64,000 bases of DNA, from NCBI GenBank assembly GCA_031370005.1, contig JANMPT010000003.1, forward strand, positions 1 to 64,000, read 5' to 3'. Origin of the DNA: Bdellovibrionales bacterium. Its GTDB lineage: Bacteria > Bdellovibrionota > Bdellovibrionia > Bdellovibrionales > Bdellovibrionaceae. Position 1 is the stretch's first letter; each line of letters opens with the position of its first letter. Shown here in pieces: positions 5,264 through 41,824 of the stretch. A program made the position numbers and the translations under genes. The notes below the pieces were generated by a model that worked only from the letters and a program-made list of their open reading frames with translations, made no database searches and was not told the DNA's origin.

Positions 5264-6874
5264 ATGATGGGTAATATTCAAGCATTTTTCAAGCACTATT
5301 CTTTACGAAATTTTCTATGGCCATTTGTTTCTGGTCTACTTATCGGTACCAGTTACATTCCTTTTCCACCATGGGCACTTCTTTTTTGCTATATTCCGCT
5401 TTGGCTTTTTCTTTTTCATCGAGTGAAAACCTGGAAGGATGCTTTCGCTGCTGGGTGGTGGACCCAATTTACCCTGTCCCTTATTGGCTTTCATTGGATT
5501 GCTTATGTCAGCTATGAATTTGGCGGCTTTCCATGGCCACTAGCCTTGTTAGTACTTTTGCTGTTTGCGGCTCTTGCGCATCTCTATATTCCATTGGCAC
5601 TCACCCTTGTATTTTTTCTAAAGAAAAAATACACCTGGAGCCTCAGCAAAACCCTGTTGGCCTCAGCGCTTTTTCTGAGCCTTGCTGAAAGAGCTTGGCC
5701 AAGCATCTTTCCATGGCATCTCGGCTATACCTTGTTATGGAGCAAGATGCCTGCGTACAACTGGGCAGATGTTTTTGGCTTCGAAGGTCTTTCAACAATT
5801 ATTTTACTTCTAAACGCCTGGCTTGCATGGATTTGGGAACATCGCCACCAGCGTGGCACTTTACAAAAGCACGGACTATTATTTATTATCTTTTTAGTAC
5901 TCATTAATCTGGGAGGCTATCTCCATGGACAAATCTGGAACGAATTTGATCGCAAATTAAAAGTTTCTATCATTCAGGCAGACATTGGCAATATGGAGAA
6001 GGTTTATGCCGAAAAGGGCCAGGGCTTTCAAGATGAGATCGTTAATAAATTCATACAACTGACTCGCGAAGCTGTTGCAGAAACCCCCAATACTGAACTA
6101 ATTGTTTGGCCAGAAACGGCTTTCCCTGATTACCTTGACACCTGGAACGCCAATGCACGAATTCCGCTTTCTCTTGCCGCTGGACTTCAACCCCTTGGGA
6201 AAACATTGCTCACAGGGGCCTATGCCAAAGATGCGCCCGGTGAAAAATCCCCGCGCCAAACATACAATGCACTTTTCTTGGTGGATTCAAGCGCCCACCA
6301 AATCGGAGAAGCATACCATAAAACAAATCTTCTTGCCTTTGGCGAATACCTTCCCTTCAGTGAGCGCTTTCCGATTTTGTTAAAACTTCTGCCTTTTATT
6401 TCAAATTTTGGTCGCGGCCATGGGCCAGAGATTTTTATTTACCCTCATCCAGAGGGTGATATTAAAATTGGCGGTCAAATATGCTATGAGGGACTTTACC
6501 CTGAATTCACCAGAGGGCTTGCTGAAAAACAGGCAGATATTCTTGTCAATGTCACCAATGACTCTTGGTTTGGCTGGCCCTTTGAGCCCCATCAGCATAT
6601 GTTGATGACCCTAGCGCGAGCCATTGAGGTCCGCAGACCCCTGATTCGTTCAACAAACACCGGCATTAGCACCCTTATTTTGGCGAACGGTGATGTTTTA
6701 CAACAGTCACCATTGCACAAAGAATGGCAAGGCAGCTATGACCTGCAAATGAAAAAAAATTCCCCTACGACGGATTTCGTATTGTGGGGACACTATGATT
6801 GGATATTAATTTTAATTGGATTGATCATTTTATTGATCAAAGGTGTATTGGATGCAAAACCTTATCGCGCTTGA
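5264..6874 (+). CDS. lnt: Apolipoprotein N-acyltransferase
   Basis: Multi-TM N-terminus; CN-hydrolase motifs WPETA, K..LLAFGEY, QICYEG, TNDSWF, RAIE.RRP..RSTNTG. Confidence 0.95.
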   Translation: MMGNIQAFFKHYSLRNFLWPFVSGLLIGTSYIPFPPWALLFCYIPLWLFLFHRVKTWKDAFAAGWWTQFTLSLIGFHWIAYVSYEFGGFPWPLALLVLLLFAALAHLYIPLALTLVFFLKKKYTWSLSKTLLASALFLSLAERAWPSIFPWHLGYTLLWSKMPAYNWADVFGFEGLSTIILLLNAWLAWIWEHRHQRGTLQKHGLLFIIFLVLINLGGYLHGQIWNEFDRKLKVSIIQADIGNMEKVYAEKGQGFQDEIVNKFIQLTREAVAETPNTELIVWPETAFPDYLDTWNANARIPLSLAAGLQPLGKTLLTGAYAKDAPGEKSPRQTYNALFLVDSSAHQIGEAYHKTNLLAFGEYLPFSERFPILLKLLPFISNFGRGHGPEIFIYPHPEGDIKIGGQICYEGLYPEFTRGLAEKQADILVNVTNDSWFGWPFEPHQHMLMTLARAIEVRRPLIRSTNTGISTLILANGDVLQQSPLHKEWQGSYDLQMKKNSPTTDFVLWGHYDWILILIGLIILLIKGVLDAKPYRA

Positions 6875-9289: not shown

Positions 9290-10303
9290 ATGCTGAAGCT
9301 AATCAAATTATCATTTATTATGCCATTTAACTTATCCTTCAGTTTTGCCATGGCTGCAGAGGGGAACTTCAGTTTATCGTCGAACGAACCTATAACCCCC
9401 ATAAGTATTTATGGTGATGACTCAGGCGAAGGTCAGGCGAAAATTATCTTGGGCAGACAGCTTTTTGAAGACAATCGCCTTTCAAGGGATCAGACGATTT
9501 CCTGTGCAAGCTGCCATAATCTTCATCATGGCGGAGTAGACGGTAAAGCAAGATCAACCGGTATCAATGGTGCGCTTGGAGATATCAATACACCAACAGT
9601 TTTCAACAGCGGTTTTAATTTTCGACAATTTTGGAACGGCCGTGCAAAAAGCCTCGAAGAACAGATCGATGGCCCAATTCAGCATTCAAAAGAAATGGGT
9701 GCGAAATGGGAAGATGTCGTCGCCGTACTCAAGAGAGATAAGCAATATTTGTCTATGTTTTCGCTTTCCTATAAGGATGGGATCACAAAAGAAAATATTA
9801 AAAATGCCATTGCAAGCTTTGAAAGATCTCTTGTGACTCCAAATTCTCGTTTTGATCAATTCCTTAATGGAAACAAGGACGCAATTTCAGCATTAGAAAA
9901 AACTGGCTACCAGCGCTTCAAGTCCTTTGGCTGTATTGCATGCCATCAAGGCATGAATGTTGGTGGCAATATGTATCAAACAATGGGGGTTATGGGGGAC
10001 TATTTCAAAGACAGGGGCTTGCCGATAATAGATGCTGATCTCGGGCGCTACTCTATAACAAAGGAGACCCTAGATAAGTATGTTTTTCGAGTCCCAAGCT
10101 TAAGAAACGTAGAGTTAACTGCGCCCTATTTTCATGATGCTTACGCTAAAACTCTAGAACAAGCTGTTTCCGTCATGGCTAAGTATCAGCTCGGAAGAAT
10201 GCTTTCAAAAGAAGATATCGATTCCATTGTGGCATTTTTAAAAACCCTCACCGGCGAACCGCCAAAAATACTCTCACAAACGCAAAAGGCGAATTCAAAA
10301 TGA
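9290..10303 (+). CDS. Di-heme cytochrome c peroxidase family protein
   Basis: CASCH and CIACH heme motifs, QFWNGRA, FRVPSLRNVELTAPYFHD. Confidence 0.9.
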   Translation: MLKLIKLSFIMPFNLSFSFAMAAEGNFSLSSNEPITPISIYGDDSGEGQAKIILGRQLFEDNRLSRDQTISCASCHNLHHGGVDGKARSTGINGALGDINTPTVFNSGFNFRQFWNGRAKSLEEQIDGPIQHSKEMGAKWEDVVAVLKRDKQYLSMFSLSYKDGITKENIKNAIASFERSLVTPNSRFDQFLNGNKDAISALEKTGYQRFKSFGCIACHQGMNVGGNMYQTMGVMGDYFKDRGLPIIDADLGRYSITKETLDKYVFRVPSLRNVELTAPYFHDAYAKTLEQAVSVMAKYQLGRMLSKEDIDSIVAFLKTLTGEPPKILSQTQKANSK

Positions 10304-31593: not shown

Positions 31594-31679
31594 GCGCGGG
31601 TGGTGAAATGGTAGACACGCAGGTCTCAGAAGCCTGTGGCCGAAAGGCTGTGGGGGTTCAAGTCCCCCCTCGCGCACCA
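31594..31679 (+). tRNA. tRNA-Leu(CAG)
   Basis: Acceptor GCGCGGG/CTCGCGC, anticodon stem CAGGT/GCCTG with loop CTCAGAA, long variable arm, GGGGG-TTCAAGT-CCCCC, encoded CCA. Confidence 0.95.
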
Positions 31680-33355
31680 ATACCTACAGTACTCGAGCCG
31701 GCACGGGTTTGAGGAAATGGGATCACAGAACCTTCTTTTTTCAAATTTATAGAAATTCCATCGGTGCCGGTTGCTTTGAAGGGTGACGAAGTTTCTTCAT
31801 CTTGTGGAGTTTCTGCGCCCTTTGCGGGCGCATACATTCCAATTTTGATTTTGGTTGGCTGAATCTCGATAAATTTAATCAGGTTTGCGAAAATCGGTCT
31901 TTGATTTTCAGGCTCTGAAATCTCAAGTCTATTAATAGTCTGCTTAATCCTATCTTTAAGACCATCTTCGTTAATTTGCTCAGACATAATCTGCATCGAT
32001 TGAGATCTGAGTTTTTCTTTCGCAAATTTCAAATCGGCGAGCTTCACATTCAATTGTTTGATCTGCTCGTAGAATTGATCGGCGGGAAGATCTGCCGGCA
32101 ACTCTGAAACTCTTTGCACAAGATTTGTGATCTTCTTGGCCGTTGTTTGAATTTCCGTGTCCATCACCTTTTGACGTGATTGCATCTCAGGCCAGTCACT
32201 TATGGACTTTTCTTTGTAAATGGCAATCCACTTTTCTATAAGGCCAGGTTCATTGAGAAGTTGTTTTAAGGACTTTAAAACAATCTCCTCTAACCGGTAA
32301 GCTCTCACGTTCTTGACCTGGCATTTAGGTTTTAGCTCCTGGGCCAGCGGATTCTTGATCTGCGAATGCCCATAGTAAAAATGCTTTTCTTTCCGGCCAA
32401 TGCCGGATTTCCCACCCATAGCTTTGCCACACTCACTGCATTGAATGAGTTCCGTCAGTGGAAAGGCATGATTTTTCCAGTCCTCAGGTTTATATTTATT
32501 TTTGTTCTTATGAAGGCGCTCTTGTACTTTGTTAAAAAAGGCTTCCTCGATGATTGGTTTCCAAACGGCAGAGACCAGCTCTCGATTTCCGTCAACATGA
32601 GCCACTTCGCGCTTTCCTAGGTAAATGGGGTTTGTCAAAAGACTTTGCAGAGTGTCCACGGTAAAAACATTACCGCCCTTATCAAGGCCGTGCTTGTTGG
32701 TGTACTTTTTGTTAAAGATTCCTTCTTTAATCAATCTGATTTGGGTCTTTCGGACTGATCCTTCCTCTATAAAAGTCTCAAATATTTTTATAACATCTGC
32801 CGATTCAAGATCGTTAATGAGCAGTTCACCTTTGTTCTTGGGGTTTCGGTCATATCCTAGGGGGATGCTTCCACCGTTCCAAAGGCCACGTTTTGCCCGG
32901 CTAAGCCAGTTGGCAGAAATTCTCTCAGCGGTTTGTTTGCGCTCGTACTGGGCATAATTTATGAGGTTAAAAACCATCATCTCGCCCGATGCAGTTGTGG
33001 TATCAAAAGATTCTCGAAGGGTGATGAAGCTGGCCTGATGCTTTTTTAACAGATCCCTGATGTCACAAAAATCACGAATATTACGGGATAAACGGGACAG
33101 CTCAGTTGCCAAAATCAAATTCACACGGCCGCCCTGGACGTCGGCTAGCATTCTTCTGAACTCAGGCCGATTCATATCTTTGGCAGATCTACCTTCGTCA
33201 CAATAGAATTCTACAATGTGACCCCAGTTGGCCTTGAGCTTGTTTTGATATTCCACATACTCAACAATTCGATTTTTCTGCGAGACCAGGGAGCCATCTA
33301 CAATTCTGGCCTGCTCTTCCGTCGATACCCGAATGTACACTCCGCAACGCTTCAT
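31658..33355 (-). CDS. Large serine recombinase (resolvase + recombinase + zinc ribbon + coiled coil)
   Basis: YIRVSTEEQ catalytic Ser, RPEF..ML, LSRLSRN, GLWNGG..PLGY, L.NPIYLG, CSECG zinc ribbon; last codons and stop lie in the antisense of tRNA-Leu. Confidence 0.95.
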   Translation of the reverse strand: MKRCGVYIRVSTEEQARIVDGSLVSQKNRIVEYVEYQNKLKANWGHIVEFYCDEGRSAKDMNRPEFRRMLADVQGGRVNLILATELSRLSRNIRDFCDIRDLLKKHQASFITLRESFDTTTASGEMMVFNLINYAQYERKQTAERISANWLSRAKRGLWNGGSIPLGYDRNPKNKGELLINDLESADVIKIFETFIEEGSVRKTQIRLIKEGIFNKKYTNKHGLDKGGNVFTVDTLQSLLTNPIYLGKREVAHVDGNRELVSAVWKPIIEEAFFNKVQERLHKNKNKYKPEDWKNHAFPLTELIQCSECGKAMGGKSGIGRKEKHFYYGHSQIKNPLAQELKPKCQVKNVRAYRLEEIVLKSLKQLLNEPGLIEKWIAIYKEKSISDWPEMQSRQKVMDTEIQTTAKKITNLVQRVSELPADLPADQFYEQIKQLNVKLADLKFAKEKLRSQSMQIMSEQINEDGLKDRIKQTINRLEISEPENQRPIFANLIKFIEIQPTKIKIGMYAPAKGAETPQDEETSSPFKATGTDGISINLKKEGSVIPFPQTRAGSSTVGIGARGGT

Positions 33356-33546
33356 GCGACCTCGCTTTCGATAAAGTCCTTTTGAATGGCCTCAGTTTTA
33401 TCATGGTCATTGCCCATTTCAAGTAGGCATTTTATGACGCGAGCTACGCGCTCGTTATAATCTTCCTCAGTTATTTTAATCTTCACGACCGCCACATTTT
33501 CTTCGTAAACGTAATCATTTTTAGAACCCATTATTTTAATCCCCAC
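33352..33546 (-). CDS. Small hypothetical protein coupled to the recombinase (possible directionality factor, unproven)
   Basis: GGAGG upstream; ATGA overlap with the recombinase start. Confidence 0.6.
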   Translation of the reverse strand: MGIKIMGSKNDYVYEENVAVVKIKITEEDYNERVARVIKCLLEMGNDHDKTEAIQKDFIESEVA

Positions 33547-33626
33547 ATACCAATCACCTCCCGGCTCAAGTTTTATTTTTCAAATTTTCATGCCTCCGTT
33601 TTTCCTTTCTTCGTTTTCAGTTTTAG

Positions 33627-34616
33627 TTATCCACATTTCTCATAACCCCTCTCCGTCACATCTTTATCAGTCCCAGATCCCTCTTCTCCGGCCACAGCTT
33701 CTGACCCCAGTCCACCTTTCGTTGGGGGAGTGGGGTCAGAAGCGATCAGTGGCCGGTTCCCAGGTTCTGTTTTTTCTGAATTTATTTGTGATGGAGAGGG
33801 GTTATCTGCAATTTCCGCGTTCAAATTTTGGTCGGCTTTGTTGCTCACCCCTTGAGTAGCTTTGTTTCCCTCTGATTTCCACACATCAAAGGCCAATTCG
33901 CCAAATGAGACAAAGCGGCTATCTTTTAAAAAGAAAACTTTTGAGTCTCTTTTATTCTTAAAAAAGTCATTAAGGTGGCTCACAAAGATATGCTGCCGAT
34001 CATTTCTAAAACTTTGCTTTTGCCAACCGGCTTTAAGTGCATGGACAAGGCCCTTGTCTTTGATGAAGTACCAAATAATATCAATACGGTTTTTGTCAGC
34101 GTACTCAGTGAATGTTTCCCGGTATCTCAAGTGGCTTTTCTGAGTAAGCTCTAGCTCCACCGCAATCACCAAAGCTTTGCCATTCATCATCTCCGCCATG
34201 AGCCCATCTGGGATGATTTTGTTACGGGCTTTTTTATAATCATGTCTGAAAGCTCCTGCCTTCATGACACATTCGGAAGTCCACTCAAGGCCAAGATTCA
34301 TTGCCTCAAAGGCAAGTCTCAAGTCATTCAAAAGCACATCATGTTCAATGGTGTTGCGGTTTGAAAATTTAAATGAGTCTTCTAAACCGAGAAGTCTTCG
34401 GCCGCCAACATCAAGCCGCCAGGTGTTTGTGCCATTCTTTAATGTCACTCCGCGAGAGATAAAACGCCCTTCCTCTAAAAGGCGCAGCCGCTTCATGACA
34501 GTGGTGTGGGCAACACCCTTAAAAAAGAGAGCCCCAATTTGACGAGTCGAGAGGACTCCAAATTTATAAATACTGGCAATAATTTCTTTGTCCCTTGCCT
34601 GTAACTTCATCCCCAA
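33627..34616 (-). CDS. Replication-relaxation (Replic_Relax) family protein
   Basis: N-terminal wHTH (L..RD..I...YKFGVLSTRQI...RL..L), EHD.LLNDLR, IPDG and AVELELTQKS..RY PD-(D/E)xK-like motifs. Confidence 0.8.
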   Translation of the reverse strand: MGMKLQARDKEIIASIYKFGVLSTRQIGALFFKGVAHTTVMKRLRLLEEGRFISRGVTLKNGTNTWRLDVGGRRLLGLEDSFKFSNRNTIEHDVLLNDLRLAFEAMNLGLEWTSECVMKAGAFRHDYKKARNKIIPDGLMAEMMNGKALVIAVELELTQKSHLRYRETFTEYADKNRIDIIWYFIKDKGLVHALKAGWQKQSFRNDRQHIFVSHLNDFFKNKRDSKVFFLKDSRFVSFGELAFDVWKSEGNKATQGVSNKADQNLNAEIADNPSPSQINSEKTEPGNRPLIASDPTPPTKGGLGSEAVAGEEGSGTDKDVTERGYEKCG

Positions 34617-35215
34617 TGTCCTTTGATGATTTCATTGATGGCTTTTTTGCTCACGACTTTAAGACTTTTCTCGTGAGCTTGACGGGCCAGCTCCTCGGAA
34701 ATCTTGCGCTCATATTCAACCTCCTGGGCCTTCAGAATTTCCAACTGCTTCGCCTCATACTTTTTACGGCGTTCATTGGCCGCAGTGATTTTGGCTTGTT
34801 CCATCTGCTGACGCTGTTCTTCCGGCAAAGCCATATAGGCATTTTCTTTTTCAATTCGCCCCAACTCAATCCGCTGAAGAATAGCCTGGCATTCCAGTTC
34901 ATCCAGCTCGGCTTGGGTGAGACGCTTTTCTTCGGCCAATTGCTTTTGCTTGTGGGTCCAATTATTCAAAAAGAATTTCAAGGCAGGGGTAGAAATCAGA
35001 AATAGAAAAAATAGGCCAGCGCAGATCAGGCAAAGGTAAACTGCATTGACCTCCATGCGCCATAGAGGCCCAACAAGACCATCCCAAAGGAAATGGCCCC
35101 TGTGATCAAGACCACTGATCCAAAAGCCCCAACGAAGCACGTTAAAGAGAAATACACACATGCCCAGTTTTATTAAGAGCACTTTCTCAAAATTTTTTAT
35201 AGGCACCTCCCTCAT
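34607..35215 (-). CDS. Hypothetical membrane protein with coiled-coil tail
   Basis: Two hydrophobic segments, charged C-terminus; overlaps the relaxase-like gene. Confidence 0.6.
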   Translation of the reverse strand: MREVPIKNFEKVLLIKLGMCVFLFNVLRWGFWISGLDHRGHFLWDGLVGPLWRMEVNAVYLCLICAGLFFLFLISTPALKFFLNNWTHKQKQLAEEKRLTQAELDELECQAILQRIELGRIEKENAYMALPEEQRQQMEQAKITAANERRKKYEAKQLEILKAQEVEYERKISEELARQAHEKSLKVVSKKAINEIIKGHWG

Positions 35216-35340
35216 TTAAAAATCACTCGCTTCTCATAGGTAATATCAAAAACGATGCCGTATTCGTGTCGCAGAGTGATTTTTCTATAAGCCTTTGTTT
35301 TCAAGACACAAAAATGATTTCCATACTTTTTGTGGCCCGC

Positions 35341-35709
35341 TTTAAGTGACGAAACTTCGTCACTTAAAATTTAGGCTCGCCCTCGGTTTTGAACCTCAAT
35401 TGAATCAATTCACCAACTTAGCAACGACGAGACCTCGACACGATTTGACGAACATTCGTCGCACACGACTTTTTAAAATTGCAAGGCCATGCCAGCATGA
35501 CCGAAAAGTGATTTAAGTTTTGGGAAACTCAAACGAATATTGAGATCCATCTCAATATGATAGGGCTGAAAAGTTTCAAATAATTTGAAACTTTTTTTTG
35601 GGTCTTGAATGAAATCATAGACTTGAGTCATTTCAAATTTCTTGAAGACTTTCAGGAAATTTGAAACCTCAAGCTCTGGCTGGGTTTTTCGGGTGACGAA
35701 ATTTCGTCA
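35341..35709. repeat. Cluster of palindromic sites in the non-coding region
   Basis: TTTAAGTGACGAA-AC-TTCGTCACTTAAA (35341-35368), GACGAA-CA-TTCGTC (35447-35460), TGACGAAATTTCGTCA (35694-35709), ATATTGAGAT-CC-ATCTCAATAT (35537-35558), AAAAGTTTCAAA-TAA-TTTGAAACTTTT (35569-35595). Confidence 0.85.
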
Positions 35710-35826
35710 TTTCAGAGGTCGACTTTACCGGTAATCGCAGTGGGTATAAGTGCTTAAAATTGTTGAGGTAAATCGGCTACGTTTTTAGACTAAAATTTCG
35801 ATGCCGATGAAATCAATTTATCCGTG

Positions 35827-35852
35827 GGGTTCGAATCCCTCCCTCTCCGCCA
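35827..35852 (+). other. Isolated 3' fragment of a tRNA-Ser (att-like relic)
   Basis: GGGTTCGAATCCCTCCCTCTCCGCCA = T-loop + acceptor 3' strand + G discriminator + CCA; no 5' half upstream. Confidence 0.75.
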
Positions 35853-35946
35853 TTTCCGAAAGTCTGGTTGTGAAAGGCGACCTCAATAAGGACGGTTGGG
35901 AATAAACCCTCGGGGGAATAAAGAAGAGAGCAAGCCCAAACGGCCG

Positions 35947-36813
35947 TCACAATAGTGATGAAAGATTTTCGGTAAGAAATTTTTTAAATGAAATAGCATC
36001 TCGCTTCAAAATATCGGAAACCACAGATGTTGGTTTAGAGAACTGGCCATTTGCGATGTTCTCACCCAGTTTCGTGAGATCGCTTGCCAACCAAGCGGGA
36101 TATCCCATAGCAGTTAGCCCCTGCACGAGTTGTTGAGAAGGCATGTTTACATAATTTATTTCTCTTTTTAAAAGTGAAGTTAGCGCCTCTGCCGCATCGC
36201 TGAACGAAATCGCCTCACTTCCCGAGATCACATAAGTTTTTCCCGCGTGACCGTTTTCCTGAAGGCAGGCGACGGCTACTGCGGCAATGTCGCGAGCATC
36301 AACCATTGCGAGTAAACCATCACTATAATTTCCATACACTGCATTCTGTGATTTAATCGCCCCAGCCTGTGCAATGAAGTTCTGCATAAAAAAATAGGGT
36401 TGCAGGATTGAAAATGAAATTTCAGAGTTTTTTAGGTAATCGTCAGCTTTGGCATGCTGTTGTGCTTGTGATATTGGAGAATCCTTACTTGCTCCAGCCC
36501 CGGAAAGCATAACGATTCGCCTTACGCCAACCTTTTTAGCAACATCAATAGCATTTTTCTTCAATTCAGCTTCATTTTGAGTAGGGGGTGCCAACAAAAA
36601 AAGCCTTTCAATTCCGGTGAGTGCTTTTTCCAGGCTAGACAAATCCTCTAAATCCCCAGTTACCGCTTCGATATTGAGTTCCTCCGCCATCTTCGCGGAT
36701 TTGGAACTGCGAGAAAGCATTTTTGTTTGAATATGCGATTTAGAAAGTTGTTTGAGAACCTCGATTCCAACTTTGCCCGTACCGCCAATAACGAGAATCA
36801 TATTACGCTCCAT
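35947..36813 (-). CDS. NmrA-like / atypical SDR NAD(P)-binding oxidoreductase
   Basis: ILVIGGTGKVG Rossmann motif, LQPYFFMQN, VDARDIAAVA, GKTYVISG. Confidence 0.9.
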   Translation of the reverse strand: MERNMILVIGGTGKVGIEVLKQLSKSHIQTKMLSRSSKSAKMAEELNIEAVTGDLEDLSSLEKALTGIERLFLLAPPTQNEAELKKNAIDVAKKVGVRRIVMLSGAGASKDSPISQAQQHAKADDYLKNSEISFSILQPYFFMQNFIAQAGAIKSQNAVYGNYSDGLLAMVDARDIAAVAVACLQENGHAGKTYVISGSEAISFSDAAEALTSLLKREINYVNMPSQQLVQGLTAMGYPAWLASDLTKLGENIANGQFSKPTSVVSDILKRDAISFKKFLTENLSSLL

Positions 36814-36828
36814 CTTGCTAATGTGGGT

Positions 36829-37269
36829 TTAAGTCAGAAGCTTGTGCAACTTCTCAAATGAGCTTTCCCAGCCATGGGTGTGGCCGGAGCAATCCTTTTC
36901 ATCAATGAATCCAGTTTGACTAAGCGTGATTTCAGTCCCATCAGCTACTTTTCGAAATTCAACTGTCACCGTTGTGTGTGGCGCGGGACCTCTCCAAGTA
37001 CCTGTGCAATCAAATACAAGGCGCTCATTTGGAACAATTTCCATGTAGGTGCCAGACATGTTGCCGGTAGTCTGTTGGCCACGCATCTCTCCTTCCATAG
37101 AAATAACAAATTTTCCGCCCACTTTAAAATCAACTTGGACCTCAGGAATTGATAATGTTCCCGGAGCAAACCAGCTTTTTAGTAAATTTGGGCTTTTCCA
37201 AGCATCAAAAACTTTCTCCGGGGACGCCTTTATCGTCTTTTTCATTTGTACTTTAATGTTTGGGTTCAT
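36829..37269 (-). CDS. SRPBCC/AHSA1 domain protein
   Basis: I.ASPEKVFDAW..P.LL..WF, DFKVGG, Y.EIVPNERL, H.HGW; GGAG RBS before ATG 37269. Confidence 0.9.
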   Translation of the reverse strand: MNPNIKVQMKKTIKASPEKVFDAWKSPNLLKSWFAPGTLSIPEVQVDFKVGGKFVISMEGEMRGQQTTGNMSGTYMEIVPNERLVFDCTGTWRGPAPHTTVTVEFRKVADGTEITLSQTGFIDEKDCSGHTHGWESSFEKLHKLLT

Positions 37270-37597
37270 GTTTTTTCTCCTCCAAAAGTTCTTGAAGCGC
37301 GTCCAAACGATTGCCCCAAAATTGTTGATAATATGAAATCCATTGATCTGCCGTCTTAAGAGTCTCGGCATTGAGACTGACAATCTGATAACTGCCCTCT
37401 TTTTTCCTGTCGATTAACTTTGCGTTCTCAAGCACCTTGAGATGCTTCGATACAGCCGCTAAAGACATTGTAAATGGCTTGGCAATTTCGCTCACGGTTT
37501 TTTGCTTCTTCGATATGCCTCGCATTATGGAGCGACGAGTAGAATCTGCCAAAGCATGAAAAATTAGGTCTAATTGTCCTATTTCAGATTTAACCAT
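37253..37597 (-). CDS. ArsR/SmtB family transcriptional regulator
   Basis: FHALADSTRRSI, MSLAAVSKHLKVLE.A.LI, FW..RLDAL. Confidence 0.93.
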   Translation of the reverse strand: MVKSEIGQLDLIFHALADSTRRSIMRGISKKQKTVSEIAKPFTMSLAAVSKHLKVLENAKLIDRKKEGSYQIVSLNAETLKTADQWISYYQQFWGNRLDALQELLEEKKHEPKH

Positions 37598-37645
37598 ATG
37601 GTTTAATGATAACAGATTCTACTATAGAGTCAACCATTTGGTTAA
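37590..37645. promoter_or_regulatory. Two probable ArsR operators
   Basis: AACC-ATAT-GGTT (37592-37603, over the start codon) and AACC-ATTT-GGTT (37632-37643). Confidence 0.7.
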
Positions 37646-37829
37646 ATCATTGAAAAGGTTCGGAATTAATCGAGCTCTCGGAAATAATCTCAGAATTCAG
37701 CATTGGGCATTACCGGACAGAAGTGCCACCCAAGTTACTCTTTTAAAGAAAATCGAGAGCGAATTAAGATTTGCGCTTTTTTCCCCAATCGTACATGGCA
37801 TCCAATATCGGTCGAAGGCTCCTGCCTGA

Positions 37830-38276
37830 ATCCGTCTTCTATTTTTATTTGTTTCTCAAGCCTTTGCCCAGAATATCCCGACCGAGTCTCCGGTGCTTGA
37901 GGATGTGATCATCAACTCGATGAGCGTCACTTACCCTTCTCCTTATAAGATTTCGATGGCAACTTATCTTGGACAAGCTCCGAAATATCGGCAGACGGCT
38001 ACATATAATTGTGGACTGAGTGCACGCAACGGCTATGACCTCTGGTGCTGGGGATTTTCTGGGGGCGGCGCCCAATTGCGTATGTTTCCAGATTTGGGAA
38101 TCGATTCGAAAAATTTGCGCCTTCCCCCCGAGTCAGGGAACACCTTTGCCCGTATGAATACGACCAAGACCAATTGCGAGAAAATGCAACAGGATCTTGC
38201 AAATGCGAGCTCAGAGAAACAATTTGTTCTCCGCGTTTATGGCAACAGAAGCTTTACTTTAACTCCACGGCCTTAA
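37830..38276 (+). pseudogene. Probably 5'-truncated secreted-protein gene
   Basis: Frame upstream of GTG 37893 reads RLLFLFVSQAFA|QNIP (end of a signal peptide) back to a TGA at 37827 with no ATG. Confidence 0.5.
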
Positions 38277-38291
38277 ACGAAGTTGCAACCC

Positions 38292-38534
38292 CTATGCTTT
38301 CTTTCTAAAAACGGTCTGCTCAAGCTTTTCTAGACGGTCCTCTACAGAGTCATGGGACTCAATAGATTTTCTGAGAAACCAATTTAAGAAGGTTTGGTAT
38401 CCCATTCCTTGTTTCTCGCCCTCAGATTCCAACCATTCAATGACCTCAGCATCAAGCCGAAAAGTCTTGATGACTTTGATGTCTTTTGCTTTTTTACCCC
38501 TTTTTGCCTTTGAGAAATCATATTCATTTTTCAT
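38292..38534 (-). CDS. BrnA-like antitoxin
   Basis: MKNEYDFSKAKRG, T.RLD.EVIEW, GYQT.LN.FLR. Confidence 0.9.
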   Translation of the reverse strand: MKNEYDFSKAKRGKKAKDIKVIKTFRLDAEVIEWLESEGEKQGMGYQTFLNWFLRKSIESHDSVEDRLEKLEQTVFRKKA

Positions 38535-38537
38535 AAC

Positions 38538-38816
38538 TCACCTCGAAAGATATTGGTTTGACTCGGTTTTGGTGGCTGGTCTTGCAGAGATAATTCGGAC
38601 CCGCTCACCCTCAATTTTTTCACAATAAACAACCACTAACAAATTGGCCTTTCGTGATATCCCCAGCCTAAGCCATCTCTCTTCATCATGAGAGTGTTCT
38701 GGGTCTGGAGTTTCTAGGGCAGAATTATCAAGCCAAATGGTTATTGCCTCAGAAAAGCGAATCCCATGCTTTTTATAGTTGCTGTCTGCCTTGGTGTCGT
38801 CCCACTCAAAGTCCAT
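38538..38816 (-). CDS. BrnT family toxin (ribonuclease)
   Basis: FEWD.TK..SN.KKHGIRF.EA, HS.DEERW..LG, RIISARPAT. Confidence 0.93.
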   Translation of the reverse strand: MDFEWDDTKADSNYKKHGIRFSEAITIWLDNSALETPDPEHSHDEERWLRLGISRKANLLVVVYCEKIEGERVRIISARPATKTESNQYLSR

Positions 38817-38821
38817 AATTC

Positions 38822-38850
38822 ACTATATTATATTGTTATTACTTTGTAAA
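38822..38850 (-). promoter_or_regulatory. Sigma70-type promoter of brnTA
   Basis: TTTACA-N17-TATAGT ending 5 nt before the ATG. Confidence 0.6.
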
Positions 38851-38865
38851 TACATTTTTAAAATC

Positions 38866-39097
38866 TCATATAGTTGGTTTTAAAGCGTTTTGCCGCACAA
38901 AGGCCTCTGAAGCCCCAATGGCCCTCGCTGTTTTCCCGGAATTCCCATATTTCTTGATAAGCGTCAGCAGGTCGGCCGGCAAAAGGGCCTTCGGCTCCGC
39001 AACAACCTCAAATTCAGCTTGAAACACCGGCTCAGATCGAAATAAAGTGCTCGCAGAGATGGCGAGCGGTTCGTCTACTTCGGTGACTTTGGCACCA
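38866..39097 (-). other. Orphan reading frame: predicted displaced C-terminal tail of the serine recombinase (HTH-like end)
   Basis: Same frame as the recombinase across the GGT-GCN core; reads GAKVTEVDEPLAI...KKYGNSGKTARAIGASEAFVRQN. Confidence 0.6.
39068..39097 (+). repeat. att-like tRNA-end mimic, copy 1
   Basis: GGTTCGTCTACTTCGGTGACTTTGGCACCA. Confidence 0.65.
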
Positions 39098-39120
39098 TTT
39101 AACATTTTCAGTCACTTGTA

Positions 39121-39162
39121 CCAATACGGCGAATGGCTTTTTCAATTCAAATTCAATACTTA
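39121..39162 (+). repeat. 42-bp direct repeat, copy 1
   Basis: CCAATACGGCGAATGGCTTTTTCAATTCAAATTCAATACTTA, identical to 40718-40759. Confidence 0.95.
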
Positions 39163-39255
39163 CACCCTTCTAGCCCCTGATATACGTTGGACATATTTAC
39201 GACGGCTTTCGAAGTGCCGAGGGGCAAATGGCTAAGAAAGGCAGTGTAATTGATT

Positions 39256-39453
39256 TTAACGCCATTCATAGTGTCCCATGTGAGGTGTTTTTTTCAAATG
39301 TAATTTAAGGCCGTTGATATCTTGCTCAAGTTCAAGAAACTTTCGGTCCGCGAACTCTTGAGACTGCTCAAGGTTGTGAGTGTAAAGCCAGAATGCAGCC
39401 TCTTCTAGCTCAGCTTTGAACTTGTCGGATTCGAGGATTTCAAATGCTTGCAT
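39256..39453 (-). pseudogene. Truncated RelE/ParE-like toxin
   Basis: 65 aa directly after the antitoxin; ParE-like N-terminus (..AELEEAAFW..L...PHMG) that ends before the usual C-terminal strands. Confidence 0.6.
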
Positions 39454-39756
39454 TTAGCCGACGGCTTTCTTCGTTCTCTTTGCATTGAGGGCTCGTGTTT
39501 TGGCGCGATTCAAAGTGTCCTTTGTCGATTGGTCCGTGACACGACTCACTCGTCCTTGAGCAATATCAACAAGGCCAACAGTCAGCCCATGCAGCCTAGC
39601 AAGATCGAGCTGCATTTTCTCAAAAACGTCGGCATTAAGAAGAACGAAGGCTTCCCCAGATTTTCGAGTGATTTTAACAGGCTCAACCCTTGCGGCTTCC
39701 ATCCACTCTTTCATATTTGATCTGAAGTCATTGGCATTTGTTCTGTCCATAGACAC
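39454..39756 (-). CDS. Phd/YefM family antitoxin
   Basis: NANDFRSNM.EWM.AA..EPV.ITRKSG..FVLL; AGGAGG RBS. Confidence 0.88.
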   Translation of the reverse strand: MSMDRTNANDFRSNMKEWMEAARVEPVKITRKSGEAFVLLNADVFEKMQLDLARLHGLTVGLVDIAQGRVSRVTDQSTKDTLNRAKTRALNAKRTKKAVG

Positions 39757-39798: not shown

Positions 39799-39895
39799 GA
39801 TGCTATTTTATCAGAAAAGTACCGTGTCTTGACTGGTAAAGCGAATACAACGTGATTGCATCCACTGTATAGGATACGTTTTATCCATTGCCAGA

Positions 39896-39925
39896 GGTTC
39901 TTCTAGCCTACGGCCGTGGGCACCA
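39896..39925 (+). repeat. att-like tRNA-end mimic, copy 2
   Basis: GGTTCTTCTAGCCTACGGCCGTGGGCACCA; same length and anchors as copy 1. Confidence 0.6.
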
Positions 39926-39979: not shown

Positions 39980-40291
39980 TTAGCTCGCCTTAGAAAAACT
40001 AAAACCAAACTCAAAGTGACCACCACAAGCGGCCGCTATGCGAGCCAACAGCGGAATAGACGGCACTCGCTTATCAGAACCACCCTCAAGTCTTGCAATC
40101 ACACTTTGAGTCGTTCCAATCAGTTTAGCTAATTGAGCCTGAGTTAAGTCAGCTTTCATGCGCGCAGCTCTAACCGCATGCGCGATTTCAGTTTTAGATT
40201 TTTCTTCTTCAAACTGAATACGAACTTCTTTGTCTTTTAATATTTTTTGAAAAAATGGCTTTGCTGATTTGTATGATTTTTTATTTTTCAT
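39980..40291 (-). CDS. HTH (XRE/HigA-like) antitoxin
   Basis: AARMKADLTQAQLA.LIGTTQSVIARLEGG..PS..LL.RIA.A. Confidence 0.9.
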   Translation of the reverse strand: MKNKKSYKSAKPFFQKILKDKEVRIQFEEEKSKTEIAHAVRAARMKADLTQAQLAKLIGTTQSVIARLEGGSDKRVPSIPLLARIAAACGGHFEFGFSFSKAS

Positions 40292-40623
40292 AATCCTAAA
40301 ACCTCTTTCATTCTTTTTTCAGCGATTTCAAGATCGCCCGTTGGTGTTTTCTGAGTTTTCTTTTTAAAAGCATGAAGCCAAACCATCGTATTTGTTTCAA
40401 CAACAACATAGGCTATGCGGTAGCTGCCGCTTGGTGTATTAAACTTTACTTCCCAGAGTTTACCGCGAAGCTGCCTAAACTGAACACGCGGACAACCTAA
40501 TCCATATTTTTCAATACCTTCAAAGACATCAGCAAAACGTGCTTGATCTGCTTTTGGCAGATCACTGATAAAATCTTCGATTGGGCTTCGTCCTGACGAC
40601 GTTTCGTAAAGAGCTACTTTCAC
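40288..40623 (-). CDS. RelE/HigB-like toxin (toxin-first TA pair)
   Basis: YET.SGRSPIEDFI..L, L.GKLWEVK, YRI.Y, LHAFKKKTQKTP..DLEIA.KR. Confidence 0.92.
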   Translation of the reverse strand: MKVALYETSSGRSPIEDFISDLPKADQARFADVFEGIEKYGLGCPRVQFRQLRGKLWEVKFNTPSGSYRIAYVVVETNTMVWLHAFKKKTQKTPTGDLEIAEKRMKEVLGL

Positions 40624-40658: not shown

Positions 40659-40717
40659 GATTTTTTTAATTTAGCTATTCTGCCCTACAAAGGCCTGACT
40701 AGCGCCGACCGTGTCAG

Positions 40718-40759
40718 CCAATACGGCGAATGGCTTTTTCAATTCAAATTCAATACTTA
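40718..40759 (+). repeat. 42-bp direct repeat, copy 2
   Basis: Identical to 39121-39162. Confidence 0.95.
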
Positions 40760-40994
40760 AGCCATTTAATATTGGGTTAGGAGAGTACATTATCACCCTC
40801 GACAATTTCTCGGAGCACATTTTGGGCAGCAATGACGTCGGACTCTGGGGTCCAATAGTCTTCGTAGCAGAGACAGTTCGCGCAGTGCGAATTTGCAAAA
40901 CAGCTGCTGATACAATCAAGGCATTTTAAGTGGCTATTTTGCTATGAATAGTTGTGAATTTGTATAGACAATAAATATCAAGTAAAATCATATG

Positions 40995-41020: not shown

Positions 41021-41131
41021 ATTCAAAATATCGTTAATTGGCCATTATATTAGTCATTATTTAGTTAGCTTATTTTGATGTGAATAATATAGTTGCCAAA
41101 ACGCCAGTAATTGGATACTATATTATCCATT

Positions 41132-41470
41132 ATGGGAAAGAAGACAGCTACACAGACACCAAAGCTAATAGCCCTTCTTAAAGCACTGGGTGAAAACATC
41201 CACCTAGCACGTCGTCGTCGTCGCCTCTCGTCCACAATGCTTGCTGAAAGGGCCGGAATGACTCGAATGACCTTGCGGGCAGTTGAAAGAGGCGAGCCAA
41301 CAGCAAGCCTTGGTGCGTATGCAAATGTACTTTTTAGCCTCGGACTTGAAAAAGATCTGTCGACTGTTGCGAAAGACGATGAGCTGGGTCGAAGACTTCA
41401 GGATGCAAGCTTAGTCAGAAGCAAAAAAACTAAGTCAAAAAAAGATCCCTCAAAAACAGAGCTAGAGTAA
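41132..41470 (+). CDS. HipB-like HTH antitoxin
   Basis: LGENI.LARRRR.LS..MLAERAG.TR.TL..VE.G, Y.NVLFSLGL..DL..VAKDDELGRRLQD. Confidence 0.88.
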   Translation: MGKKTATQTPKLIALLKALGENIHLARRRRRLSSTMLAERAGMTRMTLRAVERGEPTASLGAYANVLFSLGLEKDLSTVAKDDELGRRLQDASLVRSKKTKSKKDPSKTELE

Positions 41471-41474
41471 AATT

Positions 41475-41749
41475 ATGGGAAAGAGCAAGACTGGGCAAAA
41501 AATAGTTTATATTTATGCCAATTGGGAGACGCTAGAAACTCCTCAGCTTACGGGATCTCTATTTGTAACCCTCTCACGCGGTAAAGAAATTTTTTCATTT
41601 GAGTATGATCCAAAATGGCTGAAGTCAAATTACGCCCACGATCTTGATCCAAATTTAAAATTTTTTGGCGGTCCTCAGTATCCTAAATCCGATCACGCAA
41701 ACTTTGGTCTTTTTCTTGATTCGTCTCCAGATCGTTGGGGGTTGATAAA
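41475..41749 (+). pseudogene. Truncated HipA toxin (N-terminal domain only)
   Basis: RGKEIFSFEYD..WL, LDP.L, FG.FLDSSPDRWG, after which the frame runs into tRNA-Ala antisense; kinase domain absent. Confidence 0.85.
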
Positions 41750-41824
41750 TGGTGGACCCAACCAGAGTCGAACTGGTGACTTATCCATGCCATGGACATA
41801 TAATCCCAACTTCACCATGGGCCC
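41750..41824 (-). tRNA. tRNA-Ala(GGC)
   Basis: Sense GGGCCCA...TGGGTCC-ACCA with G3:U70; anticodon stem TGTCC/GGATA with loop ATGGCAT; ACCAG-TTCGACT-CTGGT; D-stem weak (two G:U pairs). Confidence 0.85.

Follow-up and report, generated by a model that had tools for sequence, protein, structure and literature searches.

Can an integrase gain and lose a whole protein domain through the very reaction that it catalyses? This question is raised by a 64,000-nucleotide stretch of a Bdellovibrionales bacterium genome (GenBank assembly GCA_031370005.1, contig JANMPT010000003.1, positions 1 to 64,000 of the forward strand; hereafter the window), in which a large serine recombinase (LSR) gene overlaps a tRNA-Leu gene at the latter's 3' end. 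An earlier reading of the letters (the original prediction) had proposed that the gene is split by its own attachment (att) site. Our analysis makes it very probable that attP lies inside the 3' end of the LSR gene, so that integration would detach a C-terminal tail with a helix-turn-helix (HTH)-like domain and excision would restore it. The features concerned are as follows.

31594–31679, plus strand: tRNA-Leu(CAG), the target, intact after integration (ARAGORN; relatives have the same tRNA near the same upstream gene).
31658–33355, minus strand: LSR in its integrated 565-aa form (Pfam, AlphaFold, Foldseek), the last six residues coming from the junction and the tRNA antisense strand.
31655–31699, no strand: attL, with the B arm T-loop GGTTC at 31655–31659, an inferred central GC at 31674–31675 and a P' arm consisting of ACCA and a T-loop mimic at 31694–31699 (positions conserved in 16 close-clade junctions; symmetry about GC inferred).
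39068–39097, no strand: attR, with a P arm T-loop mimic at 39068–39073 (5 bp further out than in the tRNA), a central GC at 39092–39093 and the displaced ACCA (motif positions, relatives and an empty-site relative).
38866–39096, minus strand: detached type-1 tail of 76 aa, made of att-arm codons, an acidic segment and a three-helix HTH-like domain (alignment of 15 tails, codon statistics, model helices at 40–50, 53–60 and 64–71, and relatives found by profile).
33352–33546, minus strand: 64-aa gene whose stop overlaps the LSR start, a candidate recombination directionality factor (RDF; coupled open reading frames (ORFs) in relatives, a family alignment and a complex model).

A recombinase gene crossing its own attachment site

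The LSR ORF carries Resolvase, Recombinase and Zn-ribbon domains (PF00239, PF07508 and PF13408, all above cut-off), which fits the domain order of a large serine integrase. The R9-S11 and R88/R91 motifs were invariant, the AlphaFold model contained long helices at 372–458, and the top Foldseek matches were solved serine integrase complexes, with E values down to 5e-18. The score of 180 bits for the CcrB equivalog, against an NCBIfam cut-off of 900, places the protein below the threshold for SCCmec CcrA/B/C. Its folded domains stop near residue 511 and are followed by a variable linker, with a predicted local confidence (pLDDT) below 50 over 497–565. Within this otherwise variable linker, the motif KATGTDG (31821–31860 region) was conserved among close-clade LSRs; it was considered as a DNA site and rejected, as its third codon positions are free to vary and its distance to the core ranges from 78 to 114 nt, and we regard it as a peptide motif.

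As predicted, the ORF list and ARAGORN placed the final six residues and the stop of the LSR on the antisense strand of tRNA-Leu(CAG). The letters also confirmed that the core GCACCA at 31674–31679 recurs at 39092–39097, 7418 bp away and in identical codon phase, and that the frame at the far core is open for 76 codons including two junction codons, i.e. 74 further ones; the predicted fused form of 635 aa, compared to the integrated 565 aa, holds as arithmetic (559 + 76). All core domains of the LSR lie on one side of the att site. As evidence, the repeat stood in its position and phase but not as a hexamer, since GCACCA occurs at chance level (21 copies on the plus strand of the window, roughly 3.3 per 10 kb); the hexamer repeat alone was therefore rejected and the context carries the weight.

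Part of this context came from the same genus. A boundary query against six other genomes gave matches in two, and in one of them (G006) tRNA-Leu(CAG) and tRNA-Leu(GAG) each meet, at GCACCA, DNA that is 82% and 85% identical, respectively, to window 39092–39162. Because the tRNA is joined there straight to the homolog of the DNA beyond the element, the boundary could be fixed at 39097. The relative thus puts the boundary at the predicted base and presents, at two tRNA-Leu genes, the kind of empty site that had been anticipated. The DNA after 39097 is not untouched chromosome: it is the 3' end of an older LSR gene from a second family, which meets the tRNA in another frame.

Further context came from related loci collected from genomes, metagenomes and viral contigs. 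The viral-contig set (80 loci, all 27–38% identical) was left out of further analysis, and the analysed set comprised 117 loci (L031–L146 and the window). In 61 of these the LSR match stands just before the antisense end of a tRNA or transfer-messenger RNA (tmRNA), with the codon phase of the window in 58 of the 61. The targets were 30 Leu, 9 Met, 5 Val, 4 Ser, 4 Pro, 3 Arg and 2 Ala tRNAs and one each of Phe, Gln, Gly and tmRNA, the last being met by a distant relative (L107), and the closest LSR clade used all five Leu isoacceptors. A DNA-only test for far ends, which required the tRNA's own 6-nt end followed by GAAC after 19 nt upstream of the LSR, yielded 23 matches. These were spread over 20 of 56 loci and, among the loci with 5 kb or more of upstream DNA, over 18 of 34; two of the matches are the window's own and one, in L059, is probably due to chance; other spacings from 10 to 27 gave 0–3 matches each. 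The frame of the LSR was open for at least 60 codons at 19 of the 23 far ends, compared to none of 23 in either other frame and 16 of 59 control cores. Likewise, in 23 two-ended elements of 1.4–11.4 kb assembled by hand, the attR core follows the target tRNA, both ends reading TGGTGC for Leu, TGGCGG for Ser(GGA) and TGGTGG or TGGTAG for Val (of the 35 regions added for assembly, 5 duplicated existing loci and were counted only once). At two further places, L032 near 11490 and L313 near 4840, close-clade LSRs end in damaged tRNA-like sequence or in non-tRNA DNA starting with the same core; these ends are possibly secondary sites.

The arms of the att sites were then located by their offsets from the T of TGG on the LSR strand. 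The tRNA T-loop GAACC lies at +20, the far-end GAACC at +25 and a mirror motif, GGTTCG, within the gene at −20, so the element arms are symmetric about +4/+5, which corresponds to tRNA G71-C72, and the tRNA motif sits 5 bp nearer that centre. The far end at 39092–39097 therefore has attP-type geometry, with symmetric arms and the outer (ZD) motif 5 bp further out; such a 5-bp shift of the ZD motif is described as the established distinction between attP and attB for LI integrase in the available text of PMC3783163. The B' arm had no conserved position in 20 attR sites (13 type-1, 7 type-2), and a ZD motif in both attB arms was accordingly not found. As the arm symmetry points to G71-C72 and the ends of the element in L312 have only GC in common, the crossover most likely takes place at GC 31674–31675 / 39092–39093, in which case the element would supply the terminal ACCA of the tRNA. 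This would narrow the predicted site of exchange, the core, to its GC. Because the arm motifs are symmetric with attP-type spacing, and because synonymous and nonsynonymous differences were about equally frequent over tail codons 1–10 (pS 0.27 vs pN 0.25), the "GSST" and "EP" residues are the recombinase's DNA motif read as codons. Conservation of "EP", offered earlier as protein evidence, was rejected on these grounds, and the protein signal starts further on.

The detached tail and a coupled small gene

The tails behind the far cores split into two distinct HTH-like types at the same position, the window carrying type 1, and type-1 profile matches were found in 60 of 182 family genomes and in 272 cluster representatives (E ≤ 0.001). 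AlphaFold bore out the HTH-like segment in so far as it modelled three confident helices at 40–71, with the conserved segment before them as coil. The last 40 residues are predicted to form a basic three-helix bundle, and an acidic strand-like segment has a net charge of −2 to −5 in 15 of 15 tails. The structural neighbours were regulator HTH proteins at low similarity (best VIA Z 3.9, root-mean-square deviation 2.7, 41 aligned); the fold search gave no match above Z 3.9 and neither names nor excludes a family. Pfam HTH matches were similarly weak (HTH_50 in 4 of 15 tails, best E 0.008; type 2, best E 2.6e-5, below cut-off), and the best ESM Atlas match of 0.86, to hypothetical clusters, serves as a lead only.

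Of 43 distinct LSR starts examined, 38 coincided with the end of an upstream ORF of 40–80 codons. The family alignment of the 64-aa protein was built from 24 of those coupled ORFs and that of the window. When modelled with LSR residues 172–512, the protein reached a complex score of 0.71, compared to 0.01 for the best control, with a contact agreement of at least 78% and a partner pLDDT of at least 65; the same mark was reached by 116 of 157 solved pairs and 2 of 215 mismatched ones, rates that hold only roughly with the present alignments. The modelled contacts fall on LSR 358–384, 466–494 and 501–511, i.e. the junction of the second DNA-binding domain (DBD2) and the coiled coil, where known RDFs are reported to bind in the available text of bioRxiv 2025.01.03.631226 and bioRxiv 2024.06.11.598349. 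A search of the ESM Atlas gave no usable match for the 64-aa ORF. On the strength of the model, we propose the 64-aa protein as a candidate RDF.

Taken together, these observations suggest the following course of events. A small integrative element would carry attP within the 3' end of its own LSR gene and integrate by a cut at tRNA G71-C72, as expected from LSR chemistry, restoring ACCA so that the tRNA stays whole. Integration would detach the tail from the LSR, and excision would yield a 7418-bp circle encoding a 635-aa LSR–linker–HTH protein with a linker of about 50 aa. Least certain are the last steps, in which the tail would act on recombination, the circle form would favour attP × attB integration and the tailless chromosomal form would excise together with the coupled candidate RDF. 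We favour a bias towards integration over other roles because the tail persists where the element's replication-relaxation protein (Rep, described below) has no homolog and because a separate RDF candidate exists. The tail accompanies the LSR and the small ORF in L045, L051 and L110, where the window's Rep finds no homolog, which ties it to the recombination module. Including the role of the tail in the direction of recombination, we hold the whole statement with slightly more confidence than doubt.

An alternative explanation is that the fusion is real but that the HTH tail acts outside recombination, binding an operator or origin on the circle and so regulating the operon, copy number or transfer, or else altering protein stability. 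The basic three-helix bundle with regulator HTHs as its best neighbours, its attachment through a low-confidence linker and a palindrome-rich stretch upstream of the operon (35216–35826) are consistent with such a role. Two palindrome families occur in that stretch, one with look-alikes in L045, L051 and L305 and the other, of which the LSR gene contains a degenerate copy around 31782, confined to this element among the 23; no family that might serve as a shared operator was common to all 23 elements. As the structural matches are weak and tails are kept in elements in which Rep was not found, we consider this alternative possible but distinctly the less probable one.

A bolder version of the role in recombination would make the tail a built-in anti-directionality factor, with direction set by reversible gene splitting. 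With its stop at the start of the integrase gene, the coupled RDF gene would probably be expressed together with the integrase; in the circle, the acidic tail segment would occupy the basic DBD2 edge at 501–511, where the RDF strand was modelled, and the HTH would anchor on DNA, so that the circle could integrate despite the RDF, whereas integration would leave an RDF-responsive excision enzyme. The clade would read the near-universal tRNA T-loop and change its target through the central dinucleotide. The competition is suggested by charge complementarity only, and comparison of the tail with the RDF profile gave no similarity (hhalign probability 0.1) and hence no homology support; we regard this version as speculative, a shade more so than the alternative above.

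Improbable, by comparison, is the view that the tail is a vestige or neutral extension of which only the att-arm bases matter, its open frame being incidental. Some tails are indeed truncated or broken (window 39811–39925, G000:C114 and several profile matches with stops), and a few LSRs (L052, L104, L112) end in short non-HTH extensions. Selection on the protein is nevertheless apparent beyond the arm: inside it, type-1 pN about equals pS, whereas past codon 10 pN was lower than pS in 105 of 105 type-1 and 55 of 55 type-2 pairs (omega 0.09–0.63 for the closest pairs), third codon positions have diverged (identity 0.33) while first and second positions are held (0.52 and 0.60), and stops interrupt the other two frames in 26 of 26 tails. 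Two distinct HTH-like types in the same position also argue against a neutral extension. Elsewhere in the same genome, beside a tRNA-Pro, contig C114 (G000:C114) holds a degenerate type-1 tail with a stop and a frameshift and a 29-codon LSR shard (6162–6373 and 9875–9961).

Slightly less probable still is an independent small HTH gene at 38866–39105, for example an excisionase, with its own start beside attR. The window has an in-frame ATG three codons upstream of the tail, and many such tails are annotated as proteins in their own right; that ATG, however, lies outside the element in the older LSR remnant. An upstream in-frame start was absent in 13 of 25 tails, and in 6 of 25 there was also none within the first 30 codons. 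In the 61 of 150 database-called tail proteins that were examined, the N-terminus was poorly conserved and between 2 and 362 residues long, while conservation of the tails begins at the core, so the start of translation that the original prediction had named as its own counter-evidence was not seen as a conserved feature. Finally, the possibility of a merely coincidental second GCACCA, with the true end of the island at another place such as 39925 or tRNA-Ala, is very nearly negligible: GCACCA is common and a second motif of the same spacing stands at 39925, but in G006 the tRNA is followed directly by the counterpart of the DNA from 39092 on, and complete elements pair close-clade LSRs with type-1 tails whereas the tail at 39925 is type 2.

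Homologs that continue into an E-P/HTH tail, which the split gene had been expected to have, were found in part. Natural fusions include P0041 and P0050 (a close-clade LSR with a type-2 tail) and P0141 (Recombinase, Zn ribbon and a type-1 tail). Tandem elements at tRNA-Leu(GAG) were seen in L048 (4600–15215), where the distal LSR is fused in frame to the tail of the proximal element; stacking therefore creates chimeric full-length integrases.

Several points weigh against an integrase that is remodelled by its own integration. Every fusion recovered is broken, incomplete or a tandem chimera, the LSR of L048 carrying a frameshift, and no intact full-length type-1 fusion was present among 71 LSR homologs, of which 57 end in tRNA-like or short sequence, 5 in E-P/E-L (2 clearly HTH-type, both type 2) and 9 otherwise; when longer proteins with the tail were sought, the single match was not an LSR. 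Within the available DNA, 16 of the 34 loci with at least 5 kb upstream lacked the far-end motif. Since the 26 tails in the pN/pS comparison had been selected for protein similarity, a bias towards pN < pS is built in, and as the loci are related the pair counts suggest more independence than there is. No canonical domain is lost from the integrated protein, which need not be impaired. The pass of the RDF model may reflect likeness to solved complexes, and two of six such complex predictions failed according to the available text of bioRxiv 2024.06.11.598349. No circle junction or empty site of this element itself was observed. Among sequencing runs, a single DNA run was listed as containing the stretch, as contigs only and possibly being the source sample, with no joint and no RNA run listed; this speaks neither for excision nor against it.

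Cargo of the element and older insertions at the site

The remaining features lie upstream of the LSR gene and, for the last two, beyond the element.

33627–34616, minus strand: replication-relaxation protein (Replic_Relax / MobC-like; PF13814 at E 1.4e-8, NF041423 below cut-off), with homologs upstream of many, not all, related LSRs.
34607–35215, minus strand: 202-aa ORF, first gene of the presumed operon, with no confident family and no homolog in related loci.
35216–35826, no strand: palindrome-rich non-coding stretch, candidate origin or operator region (repeats D1, D4, I8 and I19; palindromes).
35827–35855, plus strand: piece of a tRNA-Ser(TGA) 3' end within the element, matching the end of the host tRNA-Ser at G000:C3 in 28 of 29 nt.
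35947–38816, minus strand: cargo (Pfam) of an NmrA-like oxidoreductase, an SRPBCC protein, an ArsR regulator, a 127-aa ORF on the plus strand and a BrnA/BrnT toxin-antitoxin pair.
39098–39169, minus strand: 3' remnant of the older second-family LSR, outside the element (72% amino acid identity over 25 residues to a G006 ORF; the family member L347 has Resolvase and Recombinase).
39811–39925, minus strand: truncated type-2 tail behind another GCACCA with the same spacing, read as attR of an earlier element, outside the present one (motif and hidden Markov model match; its start is near-identical to the L048 tail).

The tRNA-Ser(TGA) fragment stands between the mobility module and the cargo and is probably the scar of an earlier cargo capture; it may record the uptake of another island's end. 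Scans for promoters and terminators remained at chance level (10 vs 12.6 and 10 vs 8.5, respectively).

As judged from these remnants, the element sits between the tRNA and an older, now decayed island, and the site is a stack of at least three insertions. Remnants of the second LSR family lie on the minus strand at 39098–39169 and 40670–40795, and the family had matches in 70 of 182 family genomes, some of them to the tRNA part only. The copy at 40670–40795 continues into sequence resembling the end of a type-1 HTH tail, which hints that the second family has a detachable tail too. At 41111–41824, an HTH gene and a HipA N-terminal fragment are cut at the 3' end of tRNA-Ala(GGC), which faces tRNA-Leu, and would represent a second decayed island that entered from the opposite side. 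Three toxin-antitoxin-type pairs lie within 2.3 kb: BrnT/BrnA at 38292–38816, a YefM-type antitoxin paired with a short ORF that has no family assignment at 39256–39756, and Gp49-like/HTH_3 at 39980–40623.

Comparison with known systems

Serine integrases were not known to target tRNA genes according to the available text of the 2014 Islander study (PMC4383910), and ProBord states that they prefer coding genes. Among Tycheposon elements, 27 of 937 carry an LSR, the accessible part of that source leaving the target unstated. The main text of PMC10083194, which mined LSRs by disrupted protein genes, does not contain the word "tRNA" (0 occurrences), and nothing on the present layout was found in the available text of that paper or of PMC12884075. 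A full-text literature search, confined to main texts and reaching few subscription papers, found no description of a tRNA-targeting LSR clade that sheds a whole HTH.

The locus offers a compact case of an integrase whose own reaction would add or remove a whole domain, possibly a built-in switch between insertion and excision, and bears on how serine integrases control direction. LSRs use the tRNA ends of many isoacceptors, targets that would be missed by mining based on interrupted protein genes. What is annotated on the chromosome is the short form of the protein, so a screen that starts from this annotation may be assaying the wrong isoform. Nearly all bacteria have an attB of this kind, composed of a T-loop and an acceptor end, which makes it attractive for genome engineering.

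The original prediction's claim of novelty was too strong, as att sites within the gene have been published for DsiB at tmRNA and for the rumA integrative and conjugative elements (ICEs; PMC3146451, PMC4701971). DsiB of the Dehalococcoides ssrA islands is a CcrB-like serine recombinase of ~540 aa (McMurdie et al. 2011, PMC3146451) whose gene 3' end always overlaps attL and runs into the antisense tmRNA or a neighbouring island, and its authors suggest that the enzyme is fully functional only when encoded on the circle or in a tandem arrangement behind another island. In contrast to the present element, which uses tRNA acceptor ends with a shared run of ~6 nt, DsiB targets the middle of the tmRNA T-loop with a longer direct repeat; its islands have a small second recombinase, DsiA, and a dsiA-containing six-gene module, and the available text describes no detached conserved domain, whereas here a defined HTH would be shed. 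Our element, with tRNA-Leu as its target and no second recombinase among the 20 ORFs scanned, is set apart from the ssrA islands by this description, not by sequence kinship.

In the serine integrases of streptococcal rumA ICEs, attR likewise lies in the integrase gene, the excised form has another C-terminus and length, and a functional difference has been proposed (PMC4701971). Those large conjugative elements differ in that their target is a disrupted protein gene, the 3' ends being exchanged and the frame changed, and no HTH tail is described in the part of that paper available (PMC4701971). The integrases of the myxophages Mx8/Mx9 carry attP inside the 3' end of int, and integration replaces a C-terminus of 112 residues by 13, with lowered or altered activity (PMC4701971, PMC6070905, PMC4383910); they are phage tyrosine recombinases of other chemistry and att architecture. 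As the shortened Mx8 form is reported to be less active (PMC4701971), we count it as a precedent for a difference between isoforms. The "suicidal" archaeal integrases of SSV type also have att inside the integrase gene, and the state of the gene has been proposed as a control of directionality (PMC8371274, available text); they belong to the tyrosine family and are cut in two, whereas here the catalytic and both DNA-binding domains stay whole on one side of the site. With the phage LSRs SPbeta SprA/SprB, LI/A118, Bxb1 and phiC31, the present LSR shares the domain order, the 5-bp attP/attB shift and a small partner modelled at the DBD2/coiled-coil junction (available text of PMC3783163; bioRxiv 2025.01.03.631226; bioRxiv 2024.06.11.598349), and it differs from them in a B' arm with no conserved motif, a tRNA-end target, attP within the gene and an extra HTH after DBD2 in the circle form.

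By sequence, the LSR ORF crosses the att site and the integrated and excised C-termini differ, as in the att-in-integrase systems above. The original prediction also drew a parallel with mycobacteriophage BPs, whose attP lies in the repressor gene. With a near-certain architecture and a hypothetical function of its tail, we regard the element as a variant of these published systems.

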